Shown in pieces: positions 34 through 47,847 of a DNA stretch of 64,000 nucleotides (its first letter is position 1; each line of letters opens with the position of its first letter). Under the pieces are notes generated by a model. It was not told the origin of the DNA. It was given only the letters and a program-made list of their open reading frames with translations, and made no database searches. This stretch comes from Planctomycetota bacterium (GTDB lineage Bacteria > Planctomycetota > B15-G4 > SIAN01): contig JANQQL010000050.1 of assembly GCA_028289345.1 (NCBI GenBank), positions 202,370 to 266,369 of the forward strand, given 5' to 3'. The position numbers and the translations under genes were made by a program.

Positions 34-462
34 TCACGGACCTCCTGCAAATCGAGAGACGAGCTGACGGAACTGACGCTCGTGGGTGCCCGTGCGATCG
101 GACCACTGGACTTCCACGCGTGCCTCCAAGAGAGAGGACGGATCGTTGGGTGGGTCGGGAACCAAGACTTCCACATGACCGGGAAGGCCATCCGGATCCC
201 CCTGAGGTGCTTGCAGGCGAATGCGCTCGTCTTCTAACGAGAAACCCCGCTGATGATGGTCGTCGAAGATCGTGGCGAAGCTCGCGCTTTCGACCATCTT
301 CAGCTCTTCATCCAGACGGTCACCCACCAAACGTTGGATCTCGATCGATTGGCGCATGTTGTTGGTGTCGAGAACAAGCTGCGCCGCCGCCATCACCGCT
401 ACGGCGAGCAACGCGGCCCCCACCACCAAGTCGAGAAGGCCGTAGCCGGCGCTACGACGCAT
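34..462 (-). CDS. prepilin-type N-terminal cleavage/methylation-like protein (pseudopilin-like), hypothetical
   Basis: Short leader MRRSAG followed by the hydrophobic segment YGLLDLVVGAALLAVAVMAAAQL, resembling the G/FTLxE prepilin motif with D in place of E. The ORF is 34..495; the start is chosen at the internal Met that gives a 6-aa leader. The motif is degenerate. Confidence 0.4.
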   Translation of the reverse strand: MRRSAGYGLLDLVVGAALLAVAVMAAAQLVLDTNNMRQSIEIQRLVGDRLDEELKMVESASFATIFDDHHQRGFSLEDERIRLQAPQGDPDGLPGHVEVLVPDPPNDPSSLLEARVEVQWSDRTGTHERQFRQLVSRFAGGP

Positions 463-682
463 TCGTGCTTCCGAAACCATGAACCCTTGCTCCACAAGAG
501 GGAGTTGTCAGACACAGCCAACCACGTCGCCTTCGGTTGGCGCGGGTCCTGTTGGTGAGAAGAAAATCATCTCGAGATCCGGGTTAACCAACGACTCTCA
601 AGGAGAGAGGCCTTCCGAATCGACGAGTAGTGTCCTGTCTCCAGACCAACGTCTGAAGCGCTCACCAGGAACCGAGATCCGC

Positions 683-1297
683 ATGAGTCAGCAAGGCAAA
701 CTTCGAGCACGACAAACGATCCTCGTGAACCGAAGCTTTCAACTGAAGGTCGTCGCACGGCTGGCCAGCATCTTGCTTTTCCAAGCGGTGTTGTTTTCCG
801 GACTTGCGGTACTTCTCCCCGCCGTTTGCGGGATTCTCGGTAGTCAATGGGAATGGGGTTGGGGGGAAACCCAGAACCGCGTTGGGATGGTGGCGTTCCT
901 CGGCCTCCCATTTCTGTGCGCGCTGGTCGGGTTCTTCGGCTTTGCCACCCTCGAGATGTTTCGGATCGCCGGCCCTTGTTACCGCTTTCGCACCATCCTT
1001 CGCAGTCTTCGAAACGGTCAGGTGCCCGCCGGGGTGAAGTTGCGAAGAGGGGACTACCTGCAAGACGTCGCACGGGAGTTCGACGAAACGGTTGCTTCGA
1101 TGCGTGGCGAGATCGAAGAGCTCCGCGCACTTGCCCATCGATCGGCGGAAGATCCCGAAGCGCTGTCTCAATTGACCGCCAAGCTCGATGCGATCGAGTT
1201 GCTGGGGTCGTCCTCGGAGGAAGGTGCTGACGAAGAGGAAGATTCCGCGCACCCATGGGACGAAGCCGAGTCGGTCACTCCCGCAGGGTTTCCCTAA
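683..1297 (+). CDS. small membrane protein with HAMP-like linker, hypothetical
   Basis: Two hydrophobic segments (LASILLFQAVLFSGLAVLL and VAFLGLPFLCALVGFFGFATL) followed by a HAMP-like stretch RRGDYLQDVAREFDETVASMRGEIEEL, then an acidic tail. Start taken at an internal Met of ORF 479..1297; the true start is uncertain. Confidence 0.5.
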   Translation: MSQQGKLRARQTILVNRSFQLKVVARLASILLFQAVLFSGLAVLLPAVCGILGSQWEWGWGETQNRVGMVAFLGLPFLCALVGFFGFATLEMFRIAGPCYRFRTILRSLRNGQVPAGVKLRRGDYLQDVAREFDETVASMRGEIEELRALAHRSAEDPEALSQLTAKLDAIELLGSSSEEGADEEEDSAHPWDEAESVTPAGFP

Positions 1298-1370
1298 GCG
1301 AGTTTCCAACCACGGATCGCCGAAACAGTCAAAGAGTTTGGCCGCCACCGACCTTTGCGAGTGACCTTCC

Positions 1371-2648
1371 ATGGCTTCTCCCTCTCCCAAACGTTCGCGT
1401 TCGAAGTTCCAGAAGAAGGGCCGCGGCCCGTCCCGCAAGGAAGTCGGGTCGGTCGTGATCCTCGCCCTGACCATCCTGACACCGATTCTGGTTGCGGGCG
1501 GCAGCATGATGTCGGCGCTCAACAACTACAGCCGCGAAGTCCGGACCCGTTCGGGGTTGCGAGTCGCGCAGGCAACCGCGGCCTCCGGGGCACACGAAAC
1601 CCTGTACATCCTGGATCAAGATCCCAGTTTTCGCGGAAGCCATGAAATCACCTTCGACAACGGGTTCGCCAACGTCCTCGTCGAGGAAATTGAAGCGACC
1701 GAAGGATCGATGCCTCTACTCCAGCTCCGCGCCGAGGGTTGGCACGAGAAGACCACCGCCAGCGATCAAGATGACTCGAGTCAATGGCACCGAAGCGTCG
1801 TCATTGCTGAGGTCGCCCAACGAACAAAGCAACTGGCGTTTCACCAAACCGTGTATTTGGGCAATCCCTATGAAGCGGTGGAAATCGGCTTCGGAAATGT
1901 CGAGTTCAAAGGCCAGGACGCTACTCCCGGATATGTTCCCGAGGACCCGGACGCAAACGAAGGCGAAGGAGATCACGTCTATTCGGTGGGGAGTCCCACG
2001 GACCTCGACGCTCTCAACGCGAGCTTTTCCACCTGGAAGAAAGACGACGGGGACGAGCTGGGCCTGACCCCGGAGTTGGACATCCCGCGCATGATCAGCG
2101 ACTTTGGTCGCGCGGCGGACCTCGTCCTTCCAGAAACGACGTTGGTCGCCACGGGAAACATGTCTCCTTCCCTCGGCCTCATGGTCGGAGGAGTCGCTGC
2201 GGATTCCGACGAAGCGGCTCTGTGGGGAGCCACCTCCGGCGCTGGCTCCGGCCTCGTCACCGACCTTCTGCCCGAGGGCATGGAAAGCGCCGTGGTTCAT
2301 GCTCCCGGGAATCTTTCGATCACCGGAGTCGTGGAAGGCGCCGGCGTGCTGGTGGTGGACGGCGATTTGAACGTGAACGGCGACTTCGTGTTCGATGGCC
2401 TGATCATTGTGCGAGGCAAAGTCAACATGATGGGCTGCGTCGACATCGACGGCGGTTTGTGGGTCGAAGGAGACAGCGCCGACCAGCCCTACGCGCCCGG
2501 CATCAGCATGTGTGGCGAGATCTCGGTGGAATTCACCGAGGAAGCCGCGGCGATCGCCTCGACCACGATCAGCAGCGGAATCGAGTTGGTCAGCTGGTAT
2601 CAAGACGTCCTCGATGAGTCTGTCACCGGATCCTCCTGGGATTTCTGA
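1371..2648 (+). CDS. membrane-anchored hypothetical protein
   Basis: N-terminal basic region followed by a TM helix VVILALTILTPILVAGGSMM. The rest has diverse, non-repetitive composition rich in D/E/N/G. The antisense ORF 1716..2795 is R/H/G-rich and looks like an artefact. Confidence 0.55.
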   Translation: MASPSPKRSRSKFQKKGRGPSRKEVGSVVILALTILTPILVAGGSMMSALNNYSREVRTRSGLRVAQATAASGAHETLYILDQDPSFRGSHEITFDNGFANVLVEEIEATEGSMPLLQLRAEGWHEKTTASDQDDSSQWHRSVVIAEVAQRTKQLAFHQTVYLGNPYEAVEIGFGNVEFKGQDATPGYVPEDPDANEGEGDHVYSVGSPTDLDALNASFSTWKKDDGDELGLTPELDIPRMISDFGRAADLVLPETTLVATGNMSPSLGLMVGGVAADSDEAALWGATSGAGSGLVTDLLPEGMESAVVHAPGNLSITGVVEGAGVLVVDGDLNVNGDFVFDGLIIVRGKVNMMGCVDIDGGLWVEGDSADQPYAPGISMCGEISVEFTEEAAAIASTTISSGIELVSWYQDVLDESVTGSSWDF

Positions 2649-4245
2649 GCCAGGACCCGTTCTTCGGTCCGCGGATTCCGATTCCGGCTCCCGGCGCTGG
2701 CTCGGTTGTCGTGGACAGTTCGTTCTGTTCTCGACCGTGCTGGTGGTGTCGCTTTCGATTCTGCTCGGCTGGTTGCTACGGGACATCGCGTCCACGCTGC
2801 TGAACCGGCACTACGAATCCGAAGTAGACTTCGTTGAGCGCCGGCTAGCCAGCGCAGCCGCCGAAGCCCTCGAAACAAAAAGCGTGGCAGCAATCGAAGC
2901 GTTGCGATCTCTCCCCGATCAAAGCGTTGCTCGCTTCTTCGCCTGCTACAGCCGCCGCGGCGAGATGGTTTCCTACTCGGCTTCTTCCGAGATCCCCGGC
3001 TTGGAACCCAGCTTGGTCAAGTTCGGGCAACGCAATGAAGTCAAGGGGCTCCGGCACATCACGGACCCACTGGGTGTCGAGTTGGTCTACTCGCCGGTGC
3101 GGGCAAGAGGCGCCAACTCTGCCCCAGGATCTCCTCCAGGACTTCCCGTCGGCTCCATCTTGGTCGGATACTCACGCCAAGCGTTCGAACAACGCGCCAA
3201 CCAGTTGCAGTCGCGCATTTGGATCGTCACCGGGTTGTTGGGCGCGGCCTCCATGGTGGCCGCGTGGTTCTTGACACGAGCCCTCACTCATCCGGTTCGA
3301 GCCTTGACCGAGGCCGTCCAAGCGGGCTCCCGAGACGGCGAACTGACTCGCGTGACCATCACTGCACGGGACGAAGTGGGATTGTTGGCCCACCGTTTCA
3401 ACGGGATGGTCGACGAGGTGCAACAGAACCGCCAACTTCTTCGTGACCAAGCCGGCCGTCTCGAGTTCACGGTGAAAGAGCGCACCCAAGAACTCGAACA
3501 AGCGCTGCAGGAACTCCGCGAGCTGGACAAGGAGAACACCCAAGCCCTCTCCTCCGTGTCCCACGAGTTCCGCACACCCCTTGCATCGCTGATGGGGATG
3601 GGAGAAATCCTCGAGATGGAGGGGCTGGGCCCCGAGGAACAAGCAGAGTTTCTGGACGGAATCCGGGAAAGCCTGCAGCGGCTCGAGCGCACGGCTCGAA
3701 GCTTCCGCCAAGTCGCCTGGGTGGAATCTCGGTCGGCGAGCATCGAACGGAAGCCGACATCCGTCGACGACCTGGTGCGTGCCGCAAGGGAGCTCGTGGC
3801 TCGATTTTGGCCGGAACGCCAGTTCCTGGTCGAGGCCCCCACGACTCCGACCGGTGAGCCCCCTGCCGATCCCTGCCTGGTCTTCGCCGCCCTGGAAGAG
3901 CTGCTACGCAATGCCTTCGAGTTCTCGCCCGATTCTGGAGCAGTCACGCTGCGGATCGAGCAGCAGGACGACATGCTCTGCTTGATCGTGGTCGACCAAG
4001 GCCCGGGATTGCCGGATCCGATCCGAGAGTTCGTGTTCGACAAATTCCGCCAAGGCGGCGACCTCATGACCCACAAGCCCTCGGGAACCGGGCTCGGTCT
4101 GGCTTTCTGTCAGCGGGTCGCCTGCGTGCACGGCGGGTTCATCCGACTGGACGACTCGAGCCAGGGAACTCGAGTTTGTCTCGCCCTCCCTTGTCATCCG
4201 GAGGCGCTGTTGGCTCAGTTCCGAAGCGAAGAGACGGTCTCATGA
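2614..4245 (+). CDS. sensor histidine kinase (TM, HAMP, HisKA, HATPase_c)
   Basis: TM segment LFSTVLVVSLSILLGWLL, HAMP motif EVGLLAHRFNGMVDEV, H-box SHEFRTPLASL, G-box GTGLGLAFCQRVACVHGG. The start is uncertain (ATG at 2614 or GTG near 2737) and overlaps the upstream gene. Confidence 0.8.
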   Translation: MSLSPDPPGISEPGPVLRSADSDSGSRRWLGCRGQFVLFSTVLVVSLSILLGWLLRDIASTLLNRHYESEVDFVERRLASAAAEALETKSVAAIEALRSLPDQSVARFFACYSRRGEMVSYSASSEIPGLEPSLVKFGQRNEVKGLRHITDPLGVELVYSPVRARGANSAPGSPPGLPVGSILVGYSRQAFEQRANQLQSRIWIVTGLLGAASMVAAWFLTRALTHPVRALTEAVQAGSRDGELTRVTITARDEVGLLAHRFNGMVDEVQQNRQLLRDQAGRLEFTVKERTQELEQALQELRELDKENTQALSSVSHEFRTPLASLMGMGEILEMEGLGPEEQAEFLDGIRESLQRLERTARSFRQVAWVESRSASIERKPTSVDDLVRAARELVARFWPERQFLVEAPTTPTGEPPADPCLVFAALEELLRNAFEFSPDSGAVTLRIEQQDDMLCLIVVDQGPGLPDPIREFVFDKFRQGGDLMTHKPSGTGLGLAFCQRVACVHGGFIRLDDSSQGTRVCLALPCHPEALLAQFRSEETVS

Positions 4246-5708
4246 AAGCGCGCCGAGGACTGCGCTGGAAAGCCATGACGACGGTCGGTGGGCTGATGTT
4301 TTTCTTGTCCCTTACGCTGGCCGGATTCATCTTTGCTTCCGCCACCAAGGAAGCGGGAATCCTTCGTTCGCAGCGAGTCAATCTTCTTGCCGAGCAAGTG
4401 GCCCACCGATGGATGCAAGCCACCGATCGCCTCGACGAAGAGCTTCTCTCCTCCCTCTTGTCAAATTTCGTCGAAGACCCATTTCTGGAAGGTGCAGCGG
4501 TCCTCGACAGGCACGGTCAGGTGATCGCTCGGGCCGGCACCGTTCCGGAGTCGATTCCGGGACCGGACAACGAACACTGGTCCCAGGCAGATCGGGCACC
4601 CATGCCCGTCGACTCGAAAGATCTTGCGACCAACGCCCCGTCTCCCTTCGTCTTCGCCGCGTTCGTGTCTCCTGGAGAAGAGACTCGATCGCTGCTGGGT
4701 GCGGCCTCGAGCATCTTGTGGATCGTGCTGGGAGTCACCATGGCCGCGATCATCTTGGCCTGGATCTCCACCCAGTCACTGATTCTCCCGCTCCTACAAC
4801 TCGTGCGCGCAACGGGACAAGTGGCAGATGGAGACCGAACGGCTCCGGTGGCAACCAAACGCCGCGATGAGCTTGGTCTTCTGTCACGCGCGTTCCAACG
4901 AATGGCGGATCGCATCATCGCGGTTCACGAAGACCTCGAAGCGCACAACGCTTCCCTCGAACTCGCGGTGGAGCAGCGCAAGCGTGAGTTGCAGTCGGCC
5001 TACCAAGAAACAGAGCAAGTCGACCAACTCAAAGACAACCTTCTGCAGAACGTCGCGCTGCGCATGGACAAGCCCTTGGAGAATCTGCGCCAAGCAACCG
5101 AGCAGCTGGCAACAGCGGCGCCCGAGTCGGCTCCTTCTCACGCAACTCTTCTCCTGCAGCGGGGCCGGAACCTCGAAGGAATCGTCGACGATGCGCTCGA
5201 CTGCGCGGCTCTCGAATCCCCCGATCTCGAATGGGACCGTTCAGCAACCGACGTTGCGGAGCTTCTCGCGTTGGGCAAAGAGCACTTGGGAGAGCGCTTC
5301 TCTCGTCGCGACCAGACTTGCGCGATCGCGATGCCGGACTTCGGGGGCGCTCGGTTTCTTTGGCAACGTCAGCGAATGCAACAGGTCTTTCGCTACCTGC
5401 TCGCCACCTTGGCCCGCCAATCTCCCCTGGGCGCGGAGTTGATCGTGGAAGGACGGTGCACCGACTCGCAAACCGCCGCAATCTGTTTCACCTCCCAGGG
5501 GGGGAGTGAGACAGACCACTCGGAGCCGTTCCCTCCCGCCGGGCTCGGTCTTTGTCAGGAAGTCGTCGAGCGTCACGGAGGATCCCTGACAACACCCGCA
5601 GAGAACTCCGGGGGATTCGAACTCCAGTTCCCTCTCTCCGGTGAAGAGGAAGTGGTCACGAACTCGAGTGGCCCCTCGTCCCGGCAAGTTTCGGCTTTTC
5701 CCGACTGA
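4242..5708 (+). CDS. histidine-kinase-like protein lacking the phospho-acceptor His (TM, HAMP, degenerate HisKA, degenerate HATPase)
   Basis: Start ATG overlaps the stop of the upstream kinase (ATGA). TM segments, then HAMP motif ELGLLSRAFQRMADRI. The H-box position reads NVALRMDKPLENL, with Leu where His is expected (compare SHEFRTPL upstream). The C-terminus has GLGLCQEVVERHGGSL but no clear D/G1 box. Confidence 0.7.
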   Translation: MKARRGLRWKAMTTVGGLMFFLSLTLAGFIFASATKEAGILRSQRVNLLAEQVAHRWMQATDRLDEELLSSLLSNFVEDPFLEGAAVLDRHGQVIARAGTVPESIPGPDNEHWSQADRAPMPVDSKDLATNAPSPFVFAAFVSPGEETRSLLGAASSILWIVLGVTMAAIILAWISTQSLILPLLQLVRATGQVADGDRTAPVATKRRDELGLLSRAFQRMADRIIAVHEDLEAHNASLELAVEQRKRELQSAYQETEQVDQLKDNLLQNVALRMDKPLENLRQATEQLATAAPESAPSHATLLLQRGRNLEGIVDDALDCAALESPDLEWDRSATDVAELLALGKEHLGERFSRRDQTCAIAMPDFGGARFLWQRQRMQQVFRYLLATLARQSPLGAELIVEGRCTDSQTAAICFTSQGGSETDHSEPFPPAGLGLCQEVVERHGGSLTTPAENSGGFELQFPLSGEEEVVTNSSGPSSRQVSAFPD

Positions 5709-6281: not shown

Positions 6282-7676
6282 TCAGCCTTCCAGAACCTCC
6301 CCTTTCTTCACGATGGCCTGTTCCGATCCGTCGTTTTGCATGGACACTTTGCCTCGGGCGACGACCCCCTCCTGGAAACGAAAGTCTCCCCGAACCTCGA
6401 GGCGTTCGCAATCGATCAATGAAGGCGCCCCGTCGGCGAAACGGTCGGAGAAATCGTCGATTCCCTTGAAATACCGGGAATCCAGGTCGACCACGAGCTT
6501 CCGCAGCCGGCTTTCGTCCACCGGAAGCATTCGGCTCTCTTCGGTCAGGACATACTGATCCGACCACAGTGCGAGCAGGTCATTGGTCGTTTTCACCGGC
6601 GCAAAGCGAGAGCGCGGGACCACCACTGCCTGGGCATTGTCGAAGGACGAGATCGCCGCCCCCATGGCGGTCTCCAGCTGGTACACCTTCGGGCTCGCCG
6701 GGTCCCCGGAGTCCGCGGTCTTCTGGTTGCGGATCATCGGCAGCCCCAGCACCGAGTCGTTCTCCTTCAATGTCTTCTCGAGCGCGCCCAAGTTCAGCCA
6801 CAGACTGTTGGTATTGAAGAACCGGTACTTTTCGATGTTCTGGAAGTCATCCTTTTCTTCGTCCGGACACTGGGCAGATTCTCGCAACGTCAATCGTCCG
6901 TTGGCGAGCAACGCCAAGTGACCACCCTTCTTGTCGGCTTCGGTGCGCCGCGCGACTTCCATCGCGAACGGCACCTCTTTGCCGGCGAACCAACCGAGCA
7001 GGTTCAGGTCCAAGACGGCTCCCAGGTTGTCAGCGTTGGAAACAAACGCGTAATCGATCCCTTGGTTGCGCAGCGTTTCGAGCATGCCCGACGTTTGCAA
7101 GGCGGTGTAGATGTCGCCATGTCCGGGAGGACACCATTCCGCGTTCGCGTCCGCTGGCCATTCGAGCGGGGCCAGATCGTCCACCCGAATCCGAGGCACT
7201 TTGTGCTGCAAGAAGTCGAGCGGCACTCCACTCGCCAGCCCCTCGTGCCGACTCAACGCCTGCAGCGAATCGTCCCGGGTTCGGAAGCTGTTCATCAACA
7301 CCAAAGGCAGATTGCAGTCATGGGTTCGGCGCAGATGCAGTACCTGCCCGGCAATGATGTCCAGGAACGAGCGCCCCTCTTTCACCGGCAAGAGCGACTT
7401 GGCCCGAGTCATCCCCATGCTCGTCCCCAAGCCTCCATTGAGCTTGATGACCACGGCGCGATTCAAGGCCTGGGCTCCGGCATCTTCATGACCGGTCAGA
7501 TCTTCATAGGCCGGAACCTTCTCGACGGGCGCGATGTCCGCCTGGGTGAGCAGTCCCGTCTCCCCTTTGCGCAAGAGGTCAAAGTAGTGGGCGAAGGTGT
7601 CGATGGCGATGGGGGCCAGTCCGGCGCCTTCCATCTTGGTTCGAAACGGGCCAAAACCCTCGGGGTCGCGGCTCAC
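6282..7676 (-). CDS. UTP--glucose-1-phosphate uridylyltransferase, eukaryotic UDPGP type
   Basis: Motifs KLNGGLGTSMG, FVSNADNLGA and the overall 464-aa architecture match the UGP2/UDPGP family, not bacterial GalU. Confidence 0.85.
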   Translation of the reverse strand: MSRDPEGFGPFRTKMEGAGLAPIAIDTFAHYFDLLRKGETGLLTQADIAPVEKVPAYEDLTGHEDAGAQALNRAVVIKLNGGLGTSMGMTRAKSLLPVKEGRSFLDIIAGQVLHLRRTHDCNLPLVLMNSFRTRDDSLQALSRHEGLASGVPLDFLQHKVPRIRVDDLAPLEWPADANAEWCPPGHGDIYTALQTSGMLETLRNQGIDYAFVSNADNLGAVLDLNLLGWFAGKEVPFAMEVARRTEADKKGGHLALLANGRLTLRESAQCPDEEKDDFQNIEKYRFFNTNSLWLNLGALEKTLKENDSVLGLPMIRNQKTADSGDPASPKVYQLETAMGAAISSFDNAQAVVVPRSRFAPVKTTNDLLALWSDQYVLTEESRMLPVDESRLRKLVVDLDSRYFKGIDDFSDRFADGAPSLIDCERLEVRGDFRFQEGVVARGKVSMQNDGSEQAIVKKGEVLEG

Positions 7677-7747
7677 GGCAGCCTCCTTCGTTTGCTTGGG
7701 GTCGCAGGGGTTGGTGGCGGCATCGGCCCGATCCCCCGGAGCGACGT

Positions 7748-8242
7748 TCAGCTTCCTTTTCGGCGATCGAGGGTCAGGAACACGAACGGGACCGCGTGAC
7801 GCTCATCCGGCTCGAACGTCTCCTTTTCGACCTCGACCCAATCTTCGTCCTGCAACTCCGGAAAGACTGTGTCGCCCTCGTACTCCGCATCGATTCGGGT
7901 GAGATAGATGCGATCGGCCTGGTCGAGAAGCTCGCGGTACACCACGCCCCCGCCCAACACCATCAACTCCGGGTGACCCTCGGCGATCTCCAGGGCTTGG
8001 TCGAAGTCGTGCACGATCACCGTGCCCTCGACCCGGTAGTCCCGATCCCGAGTCAGAATGATGTTGGTGCGCCCGGGCAGCGGCTTCCCGACGGTCTCGA
8101 ATGTCTTGCGGCCCATGAGGATCGGCTTGCCCATGGTCAGCTCTTTGACCCGCCGCAGGTCCTTGGGCAGGTGCCACGGCAAACCGTCGTCCTTACCGAT
8201 CACGCCGTTCTTCGCGGCTGCTACCAGGAACGAGATGCGCAT
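7748..8242 (-). CDS. folA: dihydrofolate reductase
   Basis: [49 protein letters not shown] is a classic DHFR N-terminus. The ATG overlaps the thyA stop by 1 nt. Confidence 0.9.
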   Translation of the reverse strand: MRISFLVAAAKNGVIGKDDGLPWHLPKDLRRVKELTMGKPILMGRKTFETVGKPLPGRTNIILTRDRDYRVEGTVIVHDFDQALEIAEGHPELMVLGGGVVYRELLDQADRIYLTRIDAEYEGDTVFPELQDEDWVEVEKETFEPDERHAVPFVFLTLDRRKGS

Positions 8243-9036: not shown

Positions 9037-9239
9037 CGCTCCTCCTCCCGGGCCCCGTCCCGCGGGTCATGGTCTTGGGCGCAAAATGGACGCCTGCGGG
9101 CACACCCTCCGCCAGAGTAGCCAGATTCCCGCGACCCGGGACGGAGAGACTTCGGCAAATCCGCGGCTCGCGGGATCTGCCCAACCGCACCGCCCGGGTA
9201 TCGTCCCGGGACCTTCCCGAACCGATCCAGGAGAACGCC

Positions 9240-11309
9240 ATGAAGGACCGCTGGAAGAGTGGCCCGACCACCGCCCAGGACGACATCGACGAGCTGGTGT
9301 TCCTCTCCCACATCCTCGGGGAGGAAGAGACCTTGGTCCAGCCGGGAGGCGGCAACACGTCGGTCAAGGTCACCCAGACCGGCGACGATGGCCAACAGGA
9401 GTTGGTTCTCGCCGTGAAGGGCAGCGGGACCGACCTGCGCACCATTCCTCGCGAAGGATTCACGCGACTGTCCATGCAACGCCTGGCCGGGCTGCAACGA
9501 CGTGGCGAGATGAGCGACGAAGAGATGATGGCGTTCATGAATCGCTGCATGCTGGCCGGCGGTGGACCCGTCCCCAGCGTCGAGACCCCCCTGCACTCCT
9601 TGCTGCCGCACCGGGTCATCGCCCACACCCACGATGTCGCCACCATGAGCCTCACCAATATCGCCGAGCAGCAGTCTCGAGAGTGGATGCAAGAGCTGTT
9701 CGATCAGCGGCTGTTCTACGTCCCCTACGTGAGGCCGGGTTTTCCCCTGGCCGCCCAGGTGGCCCAGGTCGTTGACCAGATCCCCCGAGATGCCTGGGGC
9801 CTCGCTCTCGCCCATCACGGCCTGGTCGCTTGGGGAGACAACGCCAAAGAGTGCTACGAACACCTGCGCTCCCTGGTCGGAGTGATGGAAGAATTCTTCG
9901 GCAAGAAGAAGCAAGGCAAGTCGGTGTTCGGCAGCGTGTCGGTGGAACCCTCGCCGGCTGCTTCGCGAAGCGAACTTGCCTCCTTGCTGATGCCGGTGAT
10001 CCGCGGAGAACTCGGCCAAGAAGAACGGGTCATCCTGCACTTCGATGACTCCGAGCACGTGCTTGGCGCGATCGGCCGCGAAGGATTCGGCCCGCTTTCG
10101 CAAAAGGGCATGGTCACTCCGGAACACATTCTGCGCGCCGGCCGAATGCCGCTCTGGGTGGATGTCGACCTGGGGGCACCACCGAGCCAGCTGATCGCTC
10201 GGACCAAGGAAAAACTGCAAGGTGCGGCGAAGGAATACCGCGCTTACCACCAGCGCCATTCTCAAGCCAAGCCGATTCCAGACTGGGCCAAAGTCGTGTT
10301 GATCCCTGGCCTCGGCATGGTCACTGCTTTCAAGGACAAGAAGAGCGCGGCGACGGCGGCGCTCTGCTACCACGCCTGCATCGACACCTTGGAGAACGCA
10401 GAAGCAGCCTCCGGATTCGAGTTCATCTCGGAAGAAGACGTGTTCGAGTTCGAGCACTGGCCGCTGGAGCGGCGCAAGGTCGAGGAGAGCATCGAGAAGG
10501 AACGCAAGTCGCTACTTTTGCCGCGGCGCGTGGTCCTGGTCGTGGGCGGCGGCAGCGGCATTGGCGAGGCCTCGGCCTGGCGATTCGCCGAAGAAGGGGC
10601 CCACGTGGTCGTCGCCGACGTGACTCTGGAGAACGCCCAAAAAGTTGCCGACGAGATTGGGGCAAAGTTCAAAACCCGGGTTTCGGCGGTCTCCTTGGAC
10701 GTGCGGGACGATGCCCAGATCGCCGCGGCCATCGATCACACGGTCCTCGAGTTTGGCGGCCTGGATTGCTTGTTCTACACTGCGGGAGTCCCTCCGCACT
10801 TCGCACGCATCACGGAACTCGACCGAGCCAATCTGCAAAAGCAGGTCGACGTGCACTACCACGGCGCGGTGCTGACCATGGGCGCCGCGGCCAAGGTGAT
10901 GGAACGCCAAGGATTGGGCGGGTCGATCCTGTGCTCCGTCTCCAAAGCAGCTCTCGCTCCGGGCAAAGAAGCCCTGGCCTATGGCGGCAGCAAGGCCGCG
11001 TTGCAGCAAGCGGTCCGGGTCGCCGCCCTGGAGCTCGGCAGCTCGAACATCCGGGTGAACGCCATCAATGCCGATCAAGTGGACACCCCTTTGTTCCGCG
11101 CGTTCGTCGCGGCTCGTGCCGAGTCCCAAGGCAAGACTCTCGAGCAACAGCTCGCGAAGTACCGGGAACGCAATGCCATGGGGACTTCGTTGATTCCCGC
11201 ACGCAGCGTCGCGGAGATCGCGGTGTTGCTGGCAAGCGATCGATTCGCCTACACCACCGGCGACATCCTGACGGTGGACGGAGGACTTCCGGACGCGTTT
11301 CCCCGATGA
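9240..11309 (+). CDS. bifunctional class II aldolase / short-chain dehydrogenase (rhamnulose-1-phosphate aldolase/alcohol dehydrogenase-like)
   Basis: N-terminal class II aldolase/adducin-like domain followed by an SDR domain (VVLVVGGGSGIGEA... YGGSKAA). Start at ATG 9240 inside ORF 9069..11309. Confidence 0.85.
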   Translation: MKDRWKSGPTTAQDDIDELVFLSHILGEEETLVQPGGGNTSVKVTQTGDDGQQELVLAVKGSGTDLRTIPREGFTRLSMQRLAGLQRRGEMSDEEMMAFMNRCMLAGGGPVPSVETPLHSLLPHRVIAHTHDVATMSLTNIAEQQSREWMQELFDQRLFYVPYVRPGFPLAAQVAQVVDQIPRDAWGLALAHHGLVAWGDNAKECYEHLRSLVGVMEEFFGKKKQGKSVFGSVSVEPSPAASRSELASLLMPVIRGELGQEERVILHFDDSEHVLGAIGREGFGPLSQKGMVTPEHILRAGRMPLWVDVDLGAPPSQLIARTKEKLQGAAKEYRAYHQRHSQAKPIPDWAKVVLIPGLGMVTAFKDKKSAATAALCYHACIDTLENAEAASGFEFISEEDVFEFEHWPLERRKVEESIEKERKSLLLPRRVVLVVGGGSGIGEASAWRFAEEGAHVVVADVTLENAQKVADEIGAKFKTRVSAVSLDVRDDAQIAAAIDHTVLEFGGLDCLFYTAGVPPHFARITELDRANLQKQVDVHYHGAVLTMGAAAKVMERQGLGGSILCSVSKAALAPGKEALAYGGSKAALQQAVRVAALELGSSNIRVNAINADQVDTPLFRAFVAARAESQGKTLEQQLAKYRERNAMGTSLIPARSVAEIAVLLASDRFAYTTGDILTVDGGLPDAFPR

Positions 11310-12334: not shown

Positions 12335-13840
12335 ATGACTTGCCCCGCACTCATCAAGAGACCTTGGGCCGTCGTTGCCTGGGGATTTGCCATCGGCCTG
12401 CTGGGGACCGTGAGCTGGTTGTGCTCGGGGACGAGGTCGGCTCCTCGCCCCGTCCCCGCCCGGGCCGCGCCTTCCAGCGGACCTTTGTCTTCGAGCGCCA
12501 TCTCCGGCGGTCCCGAGAACCCCGTCCTTCGCGTTCGAGAACCCGATCGGTTCCACTCTTCCGCGCAGGAATCACTCCGATGGGACCGTCGGATCCCCAC
12601 GACGAGTCCCATCGAAAAAGTCGAGACCCGGTACTCCCGCGTTCGCGTCCGCGGTCAGCTGCTTCTTGGCGGACAACCTTGTGCTCAACGGGCACTGGCA
12701 TTCCGACCCTTGGGGACGGGTGTTCGGGAGGGTGAGGAGCTGGGGTGGGTGGAAACTGATGGATCGGGACGCTTCGAGCAATCCCTGCCCGCCGGTGGGT
12801 TCGTCGTTCTCGATGAACAGACCGGAGCCTTTGTCGACAATCTGATGCTGAACGGAGTCGCACCCGACGTCACTTGCTTGTTGGAGATGCCCGATCAGAA
12901 ACTCCACGGTCGGGTCACAGGAATCGATGGCTCCCCTCTTTCCGGAGTTCGGGTCCAAGCAGTCCGGTTGTTCTCCCTGTCCGAGGCGGCCGCAGTCATG
13001 GACCTCGCCTTGATGTCTCCGGGAGGCCACATCCGGACAAATCACCGGGGTGAGTATTCGCTCGAGACACTCGTTCCCGGTGACTACCTCGTGACCTGGA
13101 AGCAGCGGGGCTCGACCACTTTGGTTCGCCGGCTCACGGTGCACGGAAAACTCGCTCCGGTGAATGCCACGCTCGATGCATCCGTCGACTGGCACGGCTT
13201 CGTTCATGACGCGGCCGGTCATCCCTTGTCGATGGAACTCTTGCTCTGGAGAGAAGACGGACCCGGTCTCAGCCAGCTCTTGTTGGGAACGCGGGTTCGG
13301 AGCACGCGTGACGGAACCGTGGTCGTTCCGGGGCTCGCACCTGGCAGGTACCACGTGGTCGGATTCGGCGAGAACGATCGCGGCGATTTGGCGTTGTTCG
13401 AGACCATTGAATTGGCCCGAGGCGCCAAGAGATTTGAACTGGCCGCACGGTTCGCTGGCGCCGTCACTGCCACGGTCCGGGGACCCGACGGAGGTCCGCT
13501 TCGCGGCGCCACCCTCGACCTACGAACTCTCGAAGGAGCCCCGTGCGTGGCCAGTCAGGAGTGGTTCGAACACGGGGTGACTGCGGACGACCAAGGCAGA
13601 ATCCAACTAGACGACATGATTCCCGGTCGATACCGAATCGCGGCAACTCGCCATGGATGCAAAGGCCCCGACAAGCAGATCCATGTCAGGTTCGGGCAAC
13701 GCGTAAATGTGGACCTGCGATGGGGGTCCGCGGATGAGTTCGGCAGTGGCGATCATTGTTTGCCACGGAAGCCAACGTTGCTCGAAACTCACCCGGCGCC
13801 CCGATCTCCTGTCGGCCGTCGGGAACCCCTCGTCGAATGA
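12335..13840 (+). CDS. hypothetical exported protein with carboxypeptidase-regulatory-like beta-sandwich repeats
   Basis: N-terminal hydrophobic segment WAVVAWGFAIGLLGTVSWL. Repeated segments of the form VTGIDGSPLSGVRVQAV ... GEYSLETLVPGDYLV are typical of CarboxypepD_reg-like domains. Confidence 0.55.
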   Translation: MTCPALIKRPWAVVAWGFAIGLLGTVSWLCSGTRSAPRPVPARAAPSSGPLSSSAISGGPENPVLRVREPDRFHSSAQESLRWDRRIPTTSPIEKVETRYSRVRVRGQLLLGGQPCAQRALAFRPLGTGVREGEELGWVETDGSGRFEQSLPAGGFVVLDEQTGAFVDNLMLNGVAPDVTCLLEMPDQKLHGRVTGIDGSPLSGVRVQAVRLFSLSEAAAVMDLALMSPGGHIRTNHRGEYSLETLVPGDYLVTWKQRGSTTLVRRLTVHGKLAPVNATLDASVDWHGFVHDAAGHPLSMELLLWREDGPGLSQLLLGTRVRSTRDGTVVVPGLAPGRYHVVGFGENDRGDLALFETIELARGAKRFELAARFAGAVTATVRGPDGGPLRGATLDLRTLEGAPCVASQEWFEHGVTADDQGRIQLDDMIPGRYRIAATRHGCKGPDKQIHVRFGQRVNVDLRWGSADEFGSGDHCLPRKPTLLETHPAPRSPVGRREPLVE

Positions 13841-15270: not shown

Positions 15271-16677
15271 TCAGCTCTGGGGGCCATTCAACGTGGCCCG
15301 AAAACGGCCTTCACAAAACTCGAAGCGAAGCTCGCAACCCGCCTTGGCCGCCAAGGCGGACGACAACGCCAGCCCCAAGCCCGAGCGTTCTCGATCCGTG
15401 CGGGCGCTGTCCTTTCGCCAGAACGGTTGGGTGAGCAGCTCGAGGTCGTGGTCTTCGAGATTCGGAGCCTCGTTTTCGACGGCAACTGACCAATTCGACC
15501 CGCCATTGCGGTGCTGGCATTCGATCGTGGAGTGGGGGGACGAGTGATAGACGGCGTTGCCAAGAAGGTTCGATAGGACGATGCGAATCACTTCCCCGTC
15601 TCCCTGAACCCGGGTGTCCTCGGGAATTCGATTCACGACGACAAGCTTTCGATCCCGCACCGGCTCCGCGATGGATCGCAGAAGTTCCTGCAACACCGGG
15701 GTCAGCTCGACGGGCTGTTTCTCGAAGCTTTCGGTCCCCATTTCCAAGCGCGCGAGCTTCAGCAAAGTGGAAACGGAGCCACCCATCTTCCAGGCGATCT
15801 CGCGGGTCGTGATCAACGCGCGCATCGTGGTTTCCAGGTCCTCACCATTGCGCAATGCGACTTCCGAAGAAGTGATCAATTCAGCGATCGGAGTTCGCAA
15901 CTCGTGGGCGATGTCGGCGGTGGTTCGACGTTCACGCTGAAGCGCTTTGTCGACCCGGCGAATCAGCAGGTCCGCCTTGTCCGCCACCGGGGTCAACTCC
16001 GACGGGAGCGGGCCGGTCTCGAGAGACTCGGGTAGATCGTTGACCGAGATGGCGTCCAGGGTCGAGGCCAGGCGACGGGTGGGTTCAAGGCCCCGCTCCA
16101 CGGTGACCCAGGCCAGGATCGCGATCAAAGTGATCAGCAGCAACGAGCCACCGACACAGCTCCCCATCACTTTGCCTTGGGCAGCGACGAGAGATTCGGT
16201 GCCGCGGCCCACCACCACGACGACCTTGGCGGCCTCCGGTCGATTCGGACCCCACTCGGGGTAGACGTGATGAATCTCGATCAACTGAGCGACCAGCCGG
16301 CCGGGACGTCCATCGGGAAGGGGCTCCGACCAATAGCTCGGATCGACGTCGGGAATCTCCGGGGGGAACAGTTCCTCTTCTCCCAGAGAGTTCGAGACCT
16401 CCAGCGGAGTGCCATCCTCGAAGGTCAGTTGAAAGTACGAGGGGTTCGTCGCCGATTCGTACTCCGGCATCAGCTCATCGGAAAACTCGAAGTGCACCTC
16501 GTCTTCCGTTTGAAACAGAATCGAGGCAAGCCCCTGCACACGATCGGCAAGATTGCGGTCGAACTGCTCTTCCAGGGAAACCTTCACCGCCTGGTACACC
16601 ACCACCCCCGCACCGGCCACGATGAGCGTCGTCCCGGCCAGGAGCCGACTCATGAGGAAGCTCCGAAAAGACCTCAC
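15271..16677 (-). CDS. sensor histidine kinase
   Basis: Two TM segments, H-box AHELRTPIAEL, and a HATPase with GLGLALSSALAAKAGCEL. It is start-overlapped (ATGA) by the upstream response regulator. Confidence 0.85.
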   Translation of the reverse strand: MRSFRSFLMSRLLAGTTLIVAGAGVVVYQAVKVSLEEQFDRNLADRVQGLASILFQTEDEVHFEFSDELMPEYESATNPSYFQLTFEDGTPLEVSNSLGEEELFPPEIPDVDPSYWSEPLPDGRPGRLVAQLIEIHHVYPEWGPNRPEAAKVVVVVGRGTESLVAAQGKVMGSCVGGSLLLITLIAILAWVTVERGLEPTRRLASTLDAISVNDLPESLETGPLPSELTPVADKADLLIRRVDKALQRERRTTADIAHELRTPIAELITSSEVALRNGEDLETTMRALITTREIAWKMGGSVSTLLKLARLEMGTESFEKQPVELTPVLQELLRSIAEPVRDRKLVVVNRIPEDTRVQGDGEVIRIVLSNLLGNAVYHSSPHSTIECQHRNGGSNWSVAVENEAPNLEDHDLELLTQPFWRKDSARTDRERSGLGLALSSALAAKAGCELRFEFCEGRFRATLNGPQS

Positions 16678-17345
16678 GGGGACGGGCTCTCGAGGACGTA
16701 ACCCTGCCCCCTCTTCGTGCGGACCAGGTGCTTGCGATCACCCAGCTTGTTGCGCAGGAGACAAATGGTGGAGTCCACCGCATTGCTCGAAGGAAGCCGG
16801 TGGACTCCATAGATGTGATCCTCGATCTCCTCTCGGGACACCGTTTGGTCACGCCGCAAGGCAAGGTATTCGAGCAACGCGTACTCGCGAGTGGTCAAAT
16901 CCAGGGCCTTGCCATCGAGAGTGGCGCGACGGGCCACCACGTCCACTGCCAAGGGCCCCACCTCCACCGAAGAGCCCTTCTCTTGGTAACGCCGTCGGAC
17001 CAGGGCATGAATGCGCGCCAGCAACTCTTCGAACGCGAACGGTTTCACCAGGTAGTCGTCGGCGCCCATGTTGAGCCCCTGGACCCGATCTTCGAGTCGG
17101 TCCCGCGCGGTCAACACCAGGACGTGGGGACGGTCCGGTTTGTCGCGAAGCTCGGCAAGCACGCTCATGCCATCGAGCTTGGGAAGGAGCAGATCGAGGA
17201 TCAGCACGTCATAGGGGTTGTTGCGTGCGTAGCTCAGGCCCTGCTCACCGTCGGCCACCACGTCCACCGCGAAACCTTCGCGAGACAAGCCCAGCCTCAG
17301 TGACTCGAGGAGAGTCGGAGAGTCTTCGACCACGAGCACACGCAT
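16674..17345 (-). CDS. response regulator, OmpR/PhoB family
   Basis: REC domain MRVLVVEDS...DVLILDLLLPKLDG plus a winged-helix C-terminus (VRTKRGQGYVL). Confidence 0.9.
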   Translation of the reverse strand: MRVLVVEDSPTLLESLRLGLSREGFAVDVVADGEQGLSYARNNPYDVLILDLLLPKLDGMSVLAELRDKPDRPHVLVLTARDRLEDRVQGLNMGADDYLVKPFAFEELLARIHALVRRRYQEKGSSVEVGPLAVDVVARRATLDGKALDLTTREYALLEYLALRRDQTVSREEIEDHIYGVHRLPSSNAVDSTICLLRNKLGDRKHLVRTKRGQGYVLESPSP

Positions 17346-45530: not shown

Positions 45531-46274
45531 TCAACGGGAGGCGAGGGCTTCCCGGACTGCGGGCCAGCGGCGGCGGCTCACCCGGACCCGGCTGCCCTCG
45601 GAAAGGGTCAACTCCTGCCCGCCGTCCGACAGCGCTCGGCGCTGGGCAATCGCCGTCATCTGCACCAGGGCTCCCCGATGCACCCGCAGGAACCCGTGGT
45701 CGGCGAGCAGATCCTCCATGGCCTGCATGGTCTGGCGCACCAAATGAGTGCGTCCACGGGCGTGGATCATCAGGTAATGGTCGCAGGCTTCCACCCAGCA
45801 CACTTCCTCGGGCCTCAAGAACAATTCGCCGCCGCTGGTCTTGAAGGCAAGAGGGGGCCGACTCGCGCCCGCGGCCGAGGGTGGCCCGGCGCGGCGCCAA
45901 GCAAGCCGCTCTTCCGCGCGTGCCAAGGACTGTTCGAAACGCGCGGTGTCGAATGGCTTCACCAGGTAATCGAGGGCATCGTACTCGAACGCCTGCAGCG
46001 CGTAGCGATCGAACGCGGTCACCAAGATCACGTAGGGACGCCTCGCCACATCAAGCCGCTTGGTCAGCTCCGCCAGAAGCTGAATGCCGTTGAGCTCCGG
46101 CATGCGAACGTCCAGAAACACCAGGTCGACAGGATCGGACAGCAGCAACCGCAGCGCCCGCTCGGAGTCTCCGAGCGACCACAAGCTTTCGAACCCGTCT
46201 CGAGACCCGAGCAACGCTTCCAAGTTGCGTCGGGCGAGCGGCTCGTCGTCGACGATTGCACAGCGAACGGTCAC
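45531..46274 (-). CDS. response regulator, LytR/AlgR (LytTR DNA-binding) family
   Basis: REC domain CAIVDDEPLARRNL...DLVFLDVRMPELNG followed by a LytTR domain (FLRVHRGALVQ). Confidence 0.85.
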   Translation of the reverse strand: MTVRCAIVDDEPLARRNLEALLGSRDGFESLWSLGDSERALRLLLSDPVDLVFLDVRMPELNGIQLLAELTKRLDVARRPYVILVTAFDRYALQAFEYDALDYLVKPFDTARFEQSLARAEERLAWRRAGPPSAAGASRPPLAFKTSGGELFLRPEEVCWVEACDHYLMIHARGRTHLVRQTMQAMEDLLADHGFLRVHRGALVQMTAIAQRRALSDGGQELTLSEGSRVRVSRRRWPAVREALASR

Positions 46275-47404
46275 GACGCGTCCTTCCCGGAAACGAGAAG
46301 CTCTCCCGCAGAACCGATCGGTTCCAGCGGCCAGCGCAGGGTCACTCGGGTCCCGCCGGTCTCTGGCACCGACGCGGTCATGGAGAACCGCTCGCCATAC
46401 AGCTCTCTCAAACGCGACCGGGTGTTGCCCCAGCCAATGCGCTCGCGGGCCTCAGGGCTCACTCCGGGTCCGTCGTCCTCGACTTCGACCACCAGGTCGC
46501 CGTGGTCCTCGCGAACGCGCAACACCACCGAGCCCCCCGCCGCCCGTTGTTCCACACCATGCACGATGGCATTTTCGACCAGCGGCTGGAGCACCCAACG
46601 GGGAAAGGACACGACTCGAAGTGCGTCGTCCACCTCGAGCCGCACCTGAAGTCGATCCTCGAAGCGGCAGCGCTCGATTTCCAAGTAGTGATCCAGAGCT
46701 TGCAGTTCTGCTTCCAGAGAAGCCTCTCCCTCTTCTTTCGAATCCAACGAGCCGCGCAGGAAATCTCCCAAGCGTCCGAGGATTCCCAAGGCCTTCTCGC
46801 CCTGGTTGCCGCGGATCAAGCCGCTCACCGCATGCAGCGAGTTGAACAAGAAGTGCGGGCTCATTTGCATGCGCAACACTGTCAACCGCGCTTCGGTCAG
46901 TTGTTCCTTCATGCGAGACGCGTGCAACCGCTCCTCTTCGATCAGTGCGGCTTGGTCGAACGCGATGCGTGCCACGACCACCAGCCAGTAGAACATGGTC
47001 TTGGCGAGGAAGAAGTAGTAGGACGACACCCGCAGCGCGTTGGTGAACCCGAAGTCGGTCCCCACCCAAACACCATGCAGCCCCCAGAACAGGGCTGCGA
47101 AGGCGGTGGTCAAGAGCGCCGAGAACGCCACGGACGCCATGAGGTGGGTTGCCAAGCCGGTCACCCAACGGGAACTGATCACCGGGAATCGTCCGGCCAA
47201 CCTCCAGATCCAAGGAGCCGCGACGATCCAAAGCGCCGCGCAGAGAAAGCCCTGCACGACCACAAAGGGAATCGAGGTGATGCGACCGGCGATGGCGTCG
47301 CTGACCACAAAAGCGCCACCGAGGAAGGTGCCGAGAACCAACCAAGCCACGATCCCCCATTTCCGGCGCTGGCGCAGGAACTCCTGAGGGCTCTTGGTTG
47401 GCAT
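46271..47404 (-). CDS. sensor histidine kinase, LytS/YehU (His_kinase) family
   Basis: 5-6 TM N-terminus, H-box region QMSPHFLFNSL, and a C-terminal HATPase. It is start-overlapped by the response regulator (ATGA). Start at 47404; an alternative Met lies at 47473. Confidence 0.8.
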   Translation of the reverse strand: MPTKSPQEFLRQRRKWGIVAWLVLGTFLGGAFVVSDAIAGRITSIPFVVVQGFLCAALWIVAAPWIWRLAGRFPVISSRWVTGLATHLMASVAFSALLTTAFAALFWGLHGVWVGTDFGFTNALRVSSYYFFLAKTMFYWLVVVARIAFDQAALIEEERLHASRMKEQLTEARLTVLRMQMSPHFLFNSLHAVSGLIRGNQGEKALGILGRLGDFLRGSLDSKEEGEASLEAELQALDHYLEIERCRFEDRLQVRLEVDDALRVVSFPRWVLQPLVENAIVHGVEQRAAGGSVVLRVREDHGDLVVEVEDDGPGVSPEARERIGWGNTRSRLRELYGERFSMTASVPETGGTRVTLRWPLEPIGSAGELLVSGKDAS

Positions 47405-47847
47405 CACTCGACTCCCGTGAGAGGAAAGGTGACCGATTTTCGATTCGTCAGCATCCCTTTTCAGAAACGGCATGTTGCTAGAGCACGCTGCCACTTGCCA
47501 ACGGTCGCTTCTGTGTCGCGATCGGATCCCGGGTTGTCGCGAACGGCGGGGGCAGAGCCCTGGAGGAAGGGAAGGGTCTCAGCCCCTCACCGCCATCTCT
47601 ACGAATCGCCGCGGACATTGTTGTTTTCGAGTCTCTCGGGATCATTCGAAGACTCAGCCCGGTGGAAACCAGCGCAGCCACCAGGGGGGCGAAAAACCTC
47701 GGTACCGCCCGGTCGGTCCAAGAAGACTCGGGTGGCCCATCCATCGATTTCCGTGTCTACCGAGCAATCGGACCGCAGGCGAACCGATGGATTCGTCGAG
47801 GACTCGAGGGCGAAGACCAGGACGGAAACGGAAGGTCGGGAGTCCAG

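Follow-up and report, generated by a model that had tools for sequence, protein, structure and literature searches.

A conserved degenerate histidine kinase encoded beside an orphan sensor kinase and pilin-like genes in a Planctomycetota bacterium

Background

What does a kinase-like protein without catalytic residues do when its gene is start-coupled to that of an intact sensor histidine kinase? This question is raised by a Planctomycetota locus at positions 683-5708 of a 64,000-nucleotide stretch of contig JANQQL010000050.1 (the window), which is filled by four co-oriented genes on the plus strand, designated here as g1 to g4. g3 encodes a canonical sensor histidine kinase and g4 its degenerate neighbor, while g1 encodes a small HAMP-like membrane protein and g2 a probably pilin-like protein. 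Related sets of genes occur in other metagenomic loci, where the dead kinase has stayed next to a live one despite deep divergence and a change in gene order. We estimate at about one in two the probability that this module is a conserved multi-protein membrane sensor in which g4, and probably g1, tune g3 by hetero-oligomerization, possibly reading pilin-like proteins.

Only rare examples of pseudo-histidine-kinases and kinase heteromers are known, and few cases have been studied (DivL, FasC and the laboratory-evolved ChrS). How often kinases act as mixed assemblies is an open question on which the family described here bears. In the FasBCAX system of group A Streptococcus, FasB and FasC have been proposed to form a heterodimer through their dimerization and histidine-phosphotransfer (DHp) domains, with FasC as a proposed pseudokinase whose catalytic and ATP-binding (CA) domain is dispensable (PMC12675982). 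DivL of Caulobacter carries Tyr in place of the phospho-acceptor His and controls the kinase CckA without kinase activity (PMC4211667, PMC5361649). Modulation of a kinase through contact with a kinase-family protein is also known from the RetS/GacS heteromers of Pseudomonas and from an evolved ChrS pseudokinase acting with HrrS (PMC12675982; PMC9491836). Sensor kinases have been tied to pilins in Pseudomonas aeruginosa, where PilS binds the N-terminal helix of PilA in the inner membrane, an interaction of FimS with minor pilins has been proposed, and fimS-algR (FimS = AlgZ) is a known regulator of the minor-pilin operon (PMC5979040).

Methods

The four-gene block was analyzed within the window, and its locus on the source contig (L001) was followed to the left of window position 1. 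Word-indexed searches of proteins returned the query itself only for g1 and, for g4, the query and two distant kinases. The kinase-core profile consisted of 150 related canonical kinases collected by an exhaustive HMMER search with g4. Two further kinase-like proteins, P0014 and P0063, came from an exhaustive search of representative proteins; P0014 is carried by L002, a Joint Genome Institute (JGI) metagenome locus. The most conserved component of the module, the 148-amino-acid protein pp148 encoded divergently from g1, was used as a query and returned eleven proteins and three further usable loci, and a metagenome scan gave loci L009-L020, including L010 and L011. L008, a 2x-coverage assembly with many frameshifts, was set aside. 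Two contig scans of the GTDB representative genomes with pp148 alignments gave no match, the lineage of the source genome not being among those representatives. The module was found only in metagenome-derived sequences of 60-75% guanine-plus-cytosine (GC) content, and all carriers are uncultured.

Results

g4 consists of a transmembrane (TM) segment at residues 14-32, a periplasmic domain of about 125 residues, a second TM segment at 157-175, a HAMP domain at 178-225, a signaling helix, a DHp region and a degenerate CA-like region at about 340-465. The HAMP domain matches Pfam with an E-value of 3e-13, and no HisKA or HATPase_c match was obtained at E <= 1. Three methods place 'NVALRMDKPL' of g4 opposite the canonical H-box 'SHE(L/F)RTPL'. 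BLASTP against g3 gave 27% identity from TM2 to the end of the DHp, with 'SVSHEFRTPL' opposite 'NVALRMDKPL'. phmmer against PDB sequences matched SrrB (1e-6), HK853 (3e-4) and DivL (4q20; 1e-3) in the same register and running into the CA domain. Finally, residues 158-463 of g4 align in one piece to nodes 6-328 of the 150-kinase profile (E 1e-52).

In these alignments the loss of catalytic residues is extensive. The phospho-acceptor column is His in 150/150 canonical kinases and Leu273 in g4, and the following residue, Glu or Asp in 150/150, is Arg. The N-box Asn (149/150) is Thr in g4, within VFRYLLATLARQ, and the G1 Asp (144/150) is Ser, with 'SQGGSE' standing in place of DxGxG. The F box, present in canonical kinases, is absent from g4, and only 'AGLGL' is retained of a G2 box that is of the GTGLGL type in canonical kinases. 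G1 and G2 are about 14 residues apart, compared with about 30 in canonical kinases, leaving the ATP lid about 16 residues short. The remaining histidines of g4 (positions 55, 91, 112, 229, 235, 300, 348, 426 and 445) offer no other candidate in DHp helix 1, and the CTG codon of Leu273 is two substitutions away from a His codon (CAC or CAT). The hydrophobic pattern of the DHp is retained, as is the helix-kinking Pro (Pro278), which is found in 150/150 kinases and all three pseudokinases of the profile alignment and in the other counterparts too. A further motif, 'FRYL', is common to g4, P0014 and the L007 pseudokinase. Judged by its residues, g4 would neither bind ATP nor, in the source genome, be phosphorylated. 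A preliminary description of the locus had already read Leu at the phospho-acceptor position and ATP-lid motifs degenerate apart from GLGL; the three alignments place no His there, the gene shows no frameshift, and both readings stand.

g4 is an uninterrupted open reading frame (ORF) of 488 codons in which the coding pattern GC1 > GC2 < GC3 holds along the entire gene, and an identical protein is found in two independent sources, the NCBI record and a Logan assembly. Dead-kinase counterparts with intact ORFs and 25-55% identity were found in six other metagenomic loci (Table 1). Among the 150 best matches to g4, two more lacked the His, namely P0014 ('AFSIQLKAP') and P0063 ('CASRELQAP'). In L002, which repeats the whole layout of the window, a divergent 157-amino-acid gene is accompanied by g1 and g2 orthologs, a 499-amino-acid canonical kinase and a 474-amino-acid pseudokinase with an overlapping start; identity to the window is 57% for pp148, 36% for g1, 28-30% for g2, 31% for g3 and 25% for g4.

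Table 1. Dead kinases and their gene neighborhoods. "Degenerate" denotes loss of the N, G1 and F boxes with a G2 remnant at most; the L010, L011 and P0063 copies lack G2 as well.
Locus	Gene order	Residue at His position	CA domain
Window	g1, g2, kinase, pseudokinase	Leu	Degenerate
L002	As in the window	Ile	Degenerate
L007	g1, short g2 fragment, 521-aa kinase, 482-aa pseudokinase ('AFSLQFREP'), full g2, pilin-like gene	Leu	Degenerate
L006	Pilin-like genes, g2, 539-aa kinase, 211-aa protein ('VARRFDEP')	Arg	Absent
P0063 locus	g1, pseudokinase, kinase; pilin-like genes divergent	Arg	Degenerate
L010	g1, pseudokinase, kinase; g2 in divergent pilin-like operon	His kept ('SSHELRAPV')	Degenerate
L011	g1, pseudokinase, contig end; g2 in divergent pilin-like operon	His kept ('ASHELQTPV')	Degenerate

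The His position is occupied by Leu, Ile or Arg in five of the seven family members, and two, L010 and L011, retain the H-box His with every ATP-binding box gone. Since the ATP-binding domain is dead in all members and the His is kept in two, the family trait is a dead ATPase domain and not the loss of the His, which the preliminary description had taken as defining; it is the ATP-binding machinery that is always lost. The L006 partner is a natural truncation to a TM segment, a HAMP-like segment and DHp helix 1. Because it stops at that point, the conserved function would lie in the TM-HAMP-DHp part, as expected of a dimerization partner. On comparison of the sequences, TM-HAMP-DHp is the part always retained in the family, and the His appears dispensable.

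Linkage to a live kinase is equally persistent. A canonical kinase directly adjoins the dead one in L002, L007, L006, L010 and the P0063 locus, while the L011 contig ends inside the pseudokinase. The kinase comes first in the window, L002, L007 and L006, and the pseudokinase comes first in L010 and the P0063 locus. That the linkage has outlasted this rearrangement argues for functional coupling of the two genes. Where the kinase comes first, start and stop overlap, as ATGA in the window and at 4127-4139 in L002, 5867-5879 in L007 and 14132-14147 in L006; overlaps in four loci point to co-translation of the pair. Counterparts of the pair, with g1 orthologs and pilin-like genes, recur in two gene orders across these loci.

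g4 proved to be a kinase relative, as first described, and is not a recent paralog of g3: alongside their 27% identity, g4 scores 62-63 bits against g3, 57-70 bits against the other pseudokinase clade and 105-111 bits against the kinase family of P0008. From these scores g4 is best seen as an old, fast-evolving partner and not a recent tandem copy of g3. The best canonical matches to g4 are P0008 (L004 8001-9638, from sample SRR20820731 like the window) and P0011 (L005 3762-5378), in which an N-terminal 'LRVKAM' resembles 'LRWKAM' of g4. They form an orphan kinase family of their own, each followed by a TPR-repeat gene, and were rejected as members of the module, being paralogs in a kinase-plus-TPR context.

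The block itself is laid out as first proposed. The ORF listing and the gene calls on the source contig agree on proteins of 204, 425, 543 and 488 amino acids, confirming four consecutive plus-strand genes with close or overlapping boundaries (Table 2). The start-coupling of g4 to g3 was likewise borne out, the g3 stop and g4 ATG overlapping as ATGA at 4242-4245 in the context 'tc ATG A aa'. Hydropathy indicates a single TM segment in g2 and two in each of the other three proteins. Against curated Pfam cut-offs, g3 matched HAMP, HisKA and HATPase_c, g4 matched HAMP only, and g1 and g2 matched none. Scans for promoters, terminators and Rfam families in the region found no sigma-70-like site, terminator or Rfam match.

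Table 2. Coordinates of module features. Positions refer to the sequence named in the second column.
Feature	Sequence	Coordinates	Strand	Description
pp148	Window	34..480	-	148-aa pilin-like protein, divergent from g1
Intergenic region pp148/g1	Window	481..682	.	Divergent; presumed promoters of both operons
g1	Window	683..1297	+	204 aa, two TM, HAMP-like segment, without output domain
g2	Window	1371..2648	+	425 aa, one TM, probably pilin-like
g3	Window	2614..4245	+	543 aa, canonical orphan sensor histidine kinase
g4	Window	4242..5708	+	488-aa pseudo-histidine-kinase
g4 degenerate H-box	Window	5055..5078	+	'ALRMDKPL'; Leu273 (CTG, 5058-5060) at phospho-acceptor position; Pro278 kept
g4 remnant ATP-binding region	Window	5385..5552	+	VFRYLLATLARQ, 'SQGGSE', 'AGLGL'
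L006 partner	L006	14132-14767	+	Truncated dead kinase
L010 pseudokinase	L010	3127-4365	-	H-box His kept
L011 pseudokinase	L011	~50-1242	-	H-box His kept
pp284 family	L001	4939-5793	-	Copy beside the window
pp284 family	L007	9284-9919	+
pp284 family	L007	2094-3071	-
pp284 family	L006	10480-11160	+

g3 has the order TM segment, periplasmic domain of about 145 residues, TM segment, HAMP, DHp and CA. All three Pfam domains pass their cut-offs (HAMP 5e-9; HisKA 3.4e-14, 53.1 bits compared with a cut-off of 26.9; HATPase_c 3.4e-19), and the H-box 'SHEFRTPL' carries the phospho-acceptor His317 (CAC, 3562-3564), in agreement with its initial description as a canonical TM-HAMP-HisKA-HATPase kinase. The N, G1, F and G2 boxes are present as 'LLRNAFEF', 'DQGPGL', 'FDKFRQ' and 'GTGLGL'. 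Orthologs in L002, L006 and L007 are about 31% identical, and the L010 kinase is about 34% identical to the L007 and L006 orthologs.

g1 was initially called a small HAMP-only protein with two TM segments. The TM segments (about 24-52 and 67-90) were found, around a loop of 14 Trp-rich residues; the HAMP label fails in Pfam, where no HAMP match was obtained at E <= 1, and holds at the profile level as a HAMP-like segment only. This divergent segment (94-143, 'RIAGPCYRF...RRGDYLQDV') follows TM2 and is succeeded by a coiled coil and an acidic tail. In hhalign, a pair of g1 sequences aligned to positions 2-51 of the 54 in a HAMP profile of related kinases, with a probability of 73-88% and E of 3e-5 to 3e-6. 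The HAMP register begins right after TM2 and includes the Pro of helix 1, the connector Gly and 'GDY' where 'DEI' is usual. The L006 ortholog, moreover, matches nodes 17-116 of the kinase profile (TM2, HAMP and signaling helix) with E 2e-6. g1 is best described as a putative kinase relative that stops short of the H-box. With a periplasmic loop of only 14 residues, rich in Trp, its topology would be suited to sensing inside the membrane. Orthologs lie beside the kinase pair in every locus; those in L002, L006, L007 and L008 are 34-46% identical, and the L010 and L011 copies were found through the L007 ortholog (about 37%).

The kinase pair has its most constant companions in the pilin-like g2 and the genes that diverge upstream, with at least one pilin-like gene in every locus. 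Upstream of g1, on the opposite strand, lie pp148, a 284-amino-acid protein (pp284) and a HEAT-repeat protein. The divergent pp148/g1 pair is kept in L002, L007, L008, L010, L011 and L012, the last being a distant, short contig; in L006 only g1 is divergent. pp148 shows 57-62% identity in L002, L007 and L008 and 49% in L006. It begins with a basic leader, G|YGLLD (Gly, then Asp at +5) and a hydrophobic helix. Its matches to Pfam N_methyl (E 0.02) and NCBIfam XpsH (E 0.027) are below cut-off. An AlphaFold2 (AF2) model from 11 sequences places a beta-sheet after a long N-terminal helix, at a predicted local distance difference test (pLDDT) score of only 52, and with this low-pLDDT model a Foldseek search against the PDB (best E 0.06) confirmed no pilin fold.

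The pp284 family is more explicit. Its members carry the canonical prepilin motif G|F(T/A)(L/M)(V/I)E and an invariant C-terminal Arg-Leu-Pro. We know of no described pilin motif like this C-terminal one. Three of four members match N_methyl (best 2.4e-4) and TIGR02532 (3.8e-3), and two weakly match GspJ; the copy beside the window, which starts 'MRTRNAG|FAMVEIAVV', scores nothing. The pilin identity of this family is well supported by its leader motif and profile matches.

g2 had been described as a membrane-anchored protein, which is correct as to its single TM segment (25-43) and misses that g2 is probably pilin-like, with pilin-like genes upstream. A basic leader is followed by GSVVILALTILTP and a hydrophobic helix, and orthologs in L002, L006, L007, L008, L010 and L011 share the N-terminal pattern 'GS(V/M)(V/I)(I/V)LALT(I/V)LTP', in which G26 S27 ... 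L36 T37 P38 are invariant. This N-terminus resembles minor pilins of the GspK/PilX type, and its lack of an acidic residue at +5 corresponds to the GspK/PilX pattern. The C-terminus (about 310-370) has Gly-rich beta-helix-like repeats, and matches to other families are weak only: DUF2572 (E 0.043), the ice-binding (antifreeze) beta-helix 7dc5 (E 0.024) and FwdC (E 0.013). These features suggest a beta-helix head on a pilin-like stem in g2 and its orthologs. Profile searches of PDB sequences with the pilin-like families returned sub-threshold pilin N-termini only (Geopilin, E 0.33; MshA, E 2.4), and a pilin identity of pp148 and g2 is only plausible. L007 has g2 twice, as a 161-amino-acid N-terminal copy between g1 and the kinase (7447-7932, minus strand) and as a full 408-amino-acid copy after the pseudokinase (3074-4300, minus strand), the latter followed by a 325-amino-acid pilin-like gene.

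No receiver domain was found within about 10 kb of the module in the window or adjoining it in the related loci, in keeping with the absence of an adjacent response regulator remarked on earlier. In all carriers g3 is an orphan kinase, a status that does not disqualify it as a kinase. The window holds only two receiver-domain ORFs, each beside a kinase-like gene of its own. On the minus strand, a kinase with a 2CSK_N sensor domain (15271-16677) is start/stop-coupled to an OmpR-type response regulator (16674-17345), the two forming a complete pair separate from the module. Also on the minus strand, a receiver ORF (45534-46451) lies next to a weak kinase-like ORF (46274-47578; E 4e-7), and the two are probably a two-component pair.

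Discussion

With these losses and linkages observed, we infer that g3, g4 and g1 interact physically, that the interaction has a regulatory direction and that pilins are its input. g3 alone would autophosphorylate and pass on the phosphoryl group. g4, which keeps its sensor, TM, HAMP and DHp parts, would contribute a DHp/HAMP partner surface, and g4 and probably g1 would join g3 through the coiled coils of HAMP, signaling helix and DHp, with g1 serving as a minimal membrane-embedded HAMP adaptor. The hetero-oligomers may then set the kinase/phosphatase balance of g3 in response to a second input, received by the periplasmic domain of g4 or by the Trp-rich loop and TM helices of g1, and a response regulator encoded elsewhere would receive the output. 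A physical partnership is favored indirectly, because the pair is coupled in four loci, its linkage persists through rearrangement, the dimerization modules are kept (L006) and there is precedent for such partnerships. As for the input, the block is tied genetically to three pilin-like genes (pp148, the pp284 family and g2), making the pilin-like set the most probable thing to be sensed or controlled; the quantity sensed may be the membrane pool or the assembly state of these proteins.

Several observations weigh against this proposal. The neighbor-joining tree and the bit-score matrix leave a single versus separate origin of the two pseudokinase clades undecided, so that the clades may have arisen separately. 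g4 is the fastest-evolving member, with 25% identity between loci compared with 57% for pp148, which is compatible with weak constraint. The NG86 dN/dS ratio between L010 and L011 was 0.5-0.97, a value that is unreliable at 70-75% GC and 55% identity and was left unused. For g4, AF2 modeling from the single sequence gave a poor structure (pLDDT 49). On the side of the input, the pilin scores of pp148 and g2 fall under curated thresholds, the fold search was without match, and no pilus or type II secretion machinery genes lie near any locus; Pfam gene tables of the flanks contain neither a prepilin peptidase nor an assembly ATPase at any of them. On the side of the output, no cognate regulator is seen near any locus.

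g4 could instead be an autonomous pseudokinase scaffold or reverse sensor resembling DivL, binding a regulator or another partner with no need for mixed dimers with g3, so that adjacency would reflect a shared pathway only. We consider this unlikely, though the most credible of the alternatives. DivL is among the PDB sequence matches to g4 over DHp and CA (E 1e-3), and DivL needs neither the His position nor ATPase activity (PMC4211667; PMC9491836). g4 also retains a complete remnant of a CA-like fold in which each clade has motifs of its own ('VFRYL' for the clade of the window, as against 'VVWD' and 'VVERHLGEWSE' for its counterpart), suggesting a conserved binding surface. However, the L006 partner has no CA domain, so a function of the CA surface cannot be universal. 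The tight start/stop coupling in four loci favors a stoichiometric complex, and there is no regulator gene nearby.

Somewhat less probable is a beginning as a FasC-like acceptor that the active kinase would phosphorylate in trans and that would hand the phosphoryl group onward, a state in which some members would persist, with the g4 of the window as a later derivative. L010 and L011 fit this description, since they keep 'SSHELRAPV' and 'ASHELQTPV' without N, G1, F or G2 boxes, and FasC has been proposed to be phosphorylated on H246 by the FasB kinase domain, its own kinase domain being dispensable (PMC12675982). The five members without His, however, mean that phospho-acceptance is not the conserved function, and for g4 itself it is excluded by Leu273.

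The phosphatase activity of HisKA proteins uses the H-box His and adjacent E/DxxT/N residues. A dedicated, kinase-dead phosphatase for the regulator is accordingly a very improbable identity for g4: it still has its DHp and HAMP, and a bias towards phosphatase activity exists in some kinases, but g4 reads L-R-M-D-K where its relatives read H-E-L-R-T. Having lost the acidic residue as well as the Thr, it was rejected as a protein of phosphatase function only. Next to no credibility attaches to g4 as a tandem duplicate in decay, on its way to a pseudogene, or as an artefact of frameshift or assembly: it is the least conserved block member and its catalytic motifs are gone, but the uninterrupted coding ORF, the single-frame alignment over 158-463, the identical protein in two sources, the six intact counterparts, the two substitutions from CTG to His and a g4 no closer to g3 than to other kinases effectively refute such readings.

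Among known systems, a mixed sensor of g3 and g4 is most readily compared with FasB/FasC, in which two sensor-kinase-like genes are likewise adjacent and one supplies the catalysis; the L010 and L011 members are the most FasC-like. FasC, however, keeps and uses H246 where g4 has Leu, and the Fas operon includes the regulator FasA, whereas none is adjacent here. The module additionally has a third, HAMP-like protein and pilin-like genes, and in sequence the comparison with Fas covered the general kinase fold. DivL resembles g4 in the replacement of the phospho-acceptor His and in its sequence match across DHp and CA. It differs in having PAS domains, in being encoded apart from its kinase partner and in sensing phosphorylated DivK, whereas g4 has periplasmic and HAMP domains, a far more degenerate CA region and translational coupling to its presumed partner. 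RetS/GacS and ChrS/HrrS share with the proposed g3/g4 pair a modulation that does not depend on the partner's own catalysis. RetS, however, has intact catalytic motifs and a gene that is not linked to gacS, and ChrS_CA-fs is a laboratory frameshift variant, whereas the g4 family is natural and conserved.

Neither PilS nor FimS has a HAMP domain, and both are multi-pass proteins. The PilS-PilR and FimS-AlgR systems resemble the module in that sensor kinases are tied to pilins, here through linkage of the kinase pair to pilin-like genes, but they have an adjacent cognate regulator and one kinase each, which is joined by neither a pseudokinase nor a HAMP-only partner. To our knowledge, and with no literature search aimed at this architecture, the combination of a live kinase, a dead kinase, a HAMP-like adaptor and pilin-like genes is undescribed. 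A pilin link would extend the PilS/FimS idea of reading pilins within the membrane to a new architecture and lineage. The natural series of His with a dead ATPase, loss of both, and no ATPase domain at all bears on which parts a pseudokinase partner needs.

A more specific possibility, which we hold only as a tentative and rather doubtful one, is that pp148, pp284 and the beta-helical-headed g2 form a small pseudopilus-like tip complex acting as a periplasmic or surface probe, and that the state of its stems in the membrane would be read by the kinase, the pseudokinase and the HAMP-only adaptor. If true, this would couple a type IV filament-like device to two-component signaling without a dedicated adjacent regulator.

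Additional observations

Downstream of the module, window positions 9069-11309 on the plus strand encode a 746-amino-acid protein in which a class II aldolase domain is fused to a short-chain dehydrogenase domain. Two genes a few kb from the module, one at window positions 12335-13840 (plus strand) and the other an 871-amino-acid gene in the P0063 locus, encode large secreted proteins that contain CarboxypepD_reg repeats; their presence in two unrelated loci may be a coincidence or a trait of the lineage.

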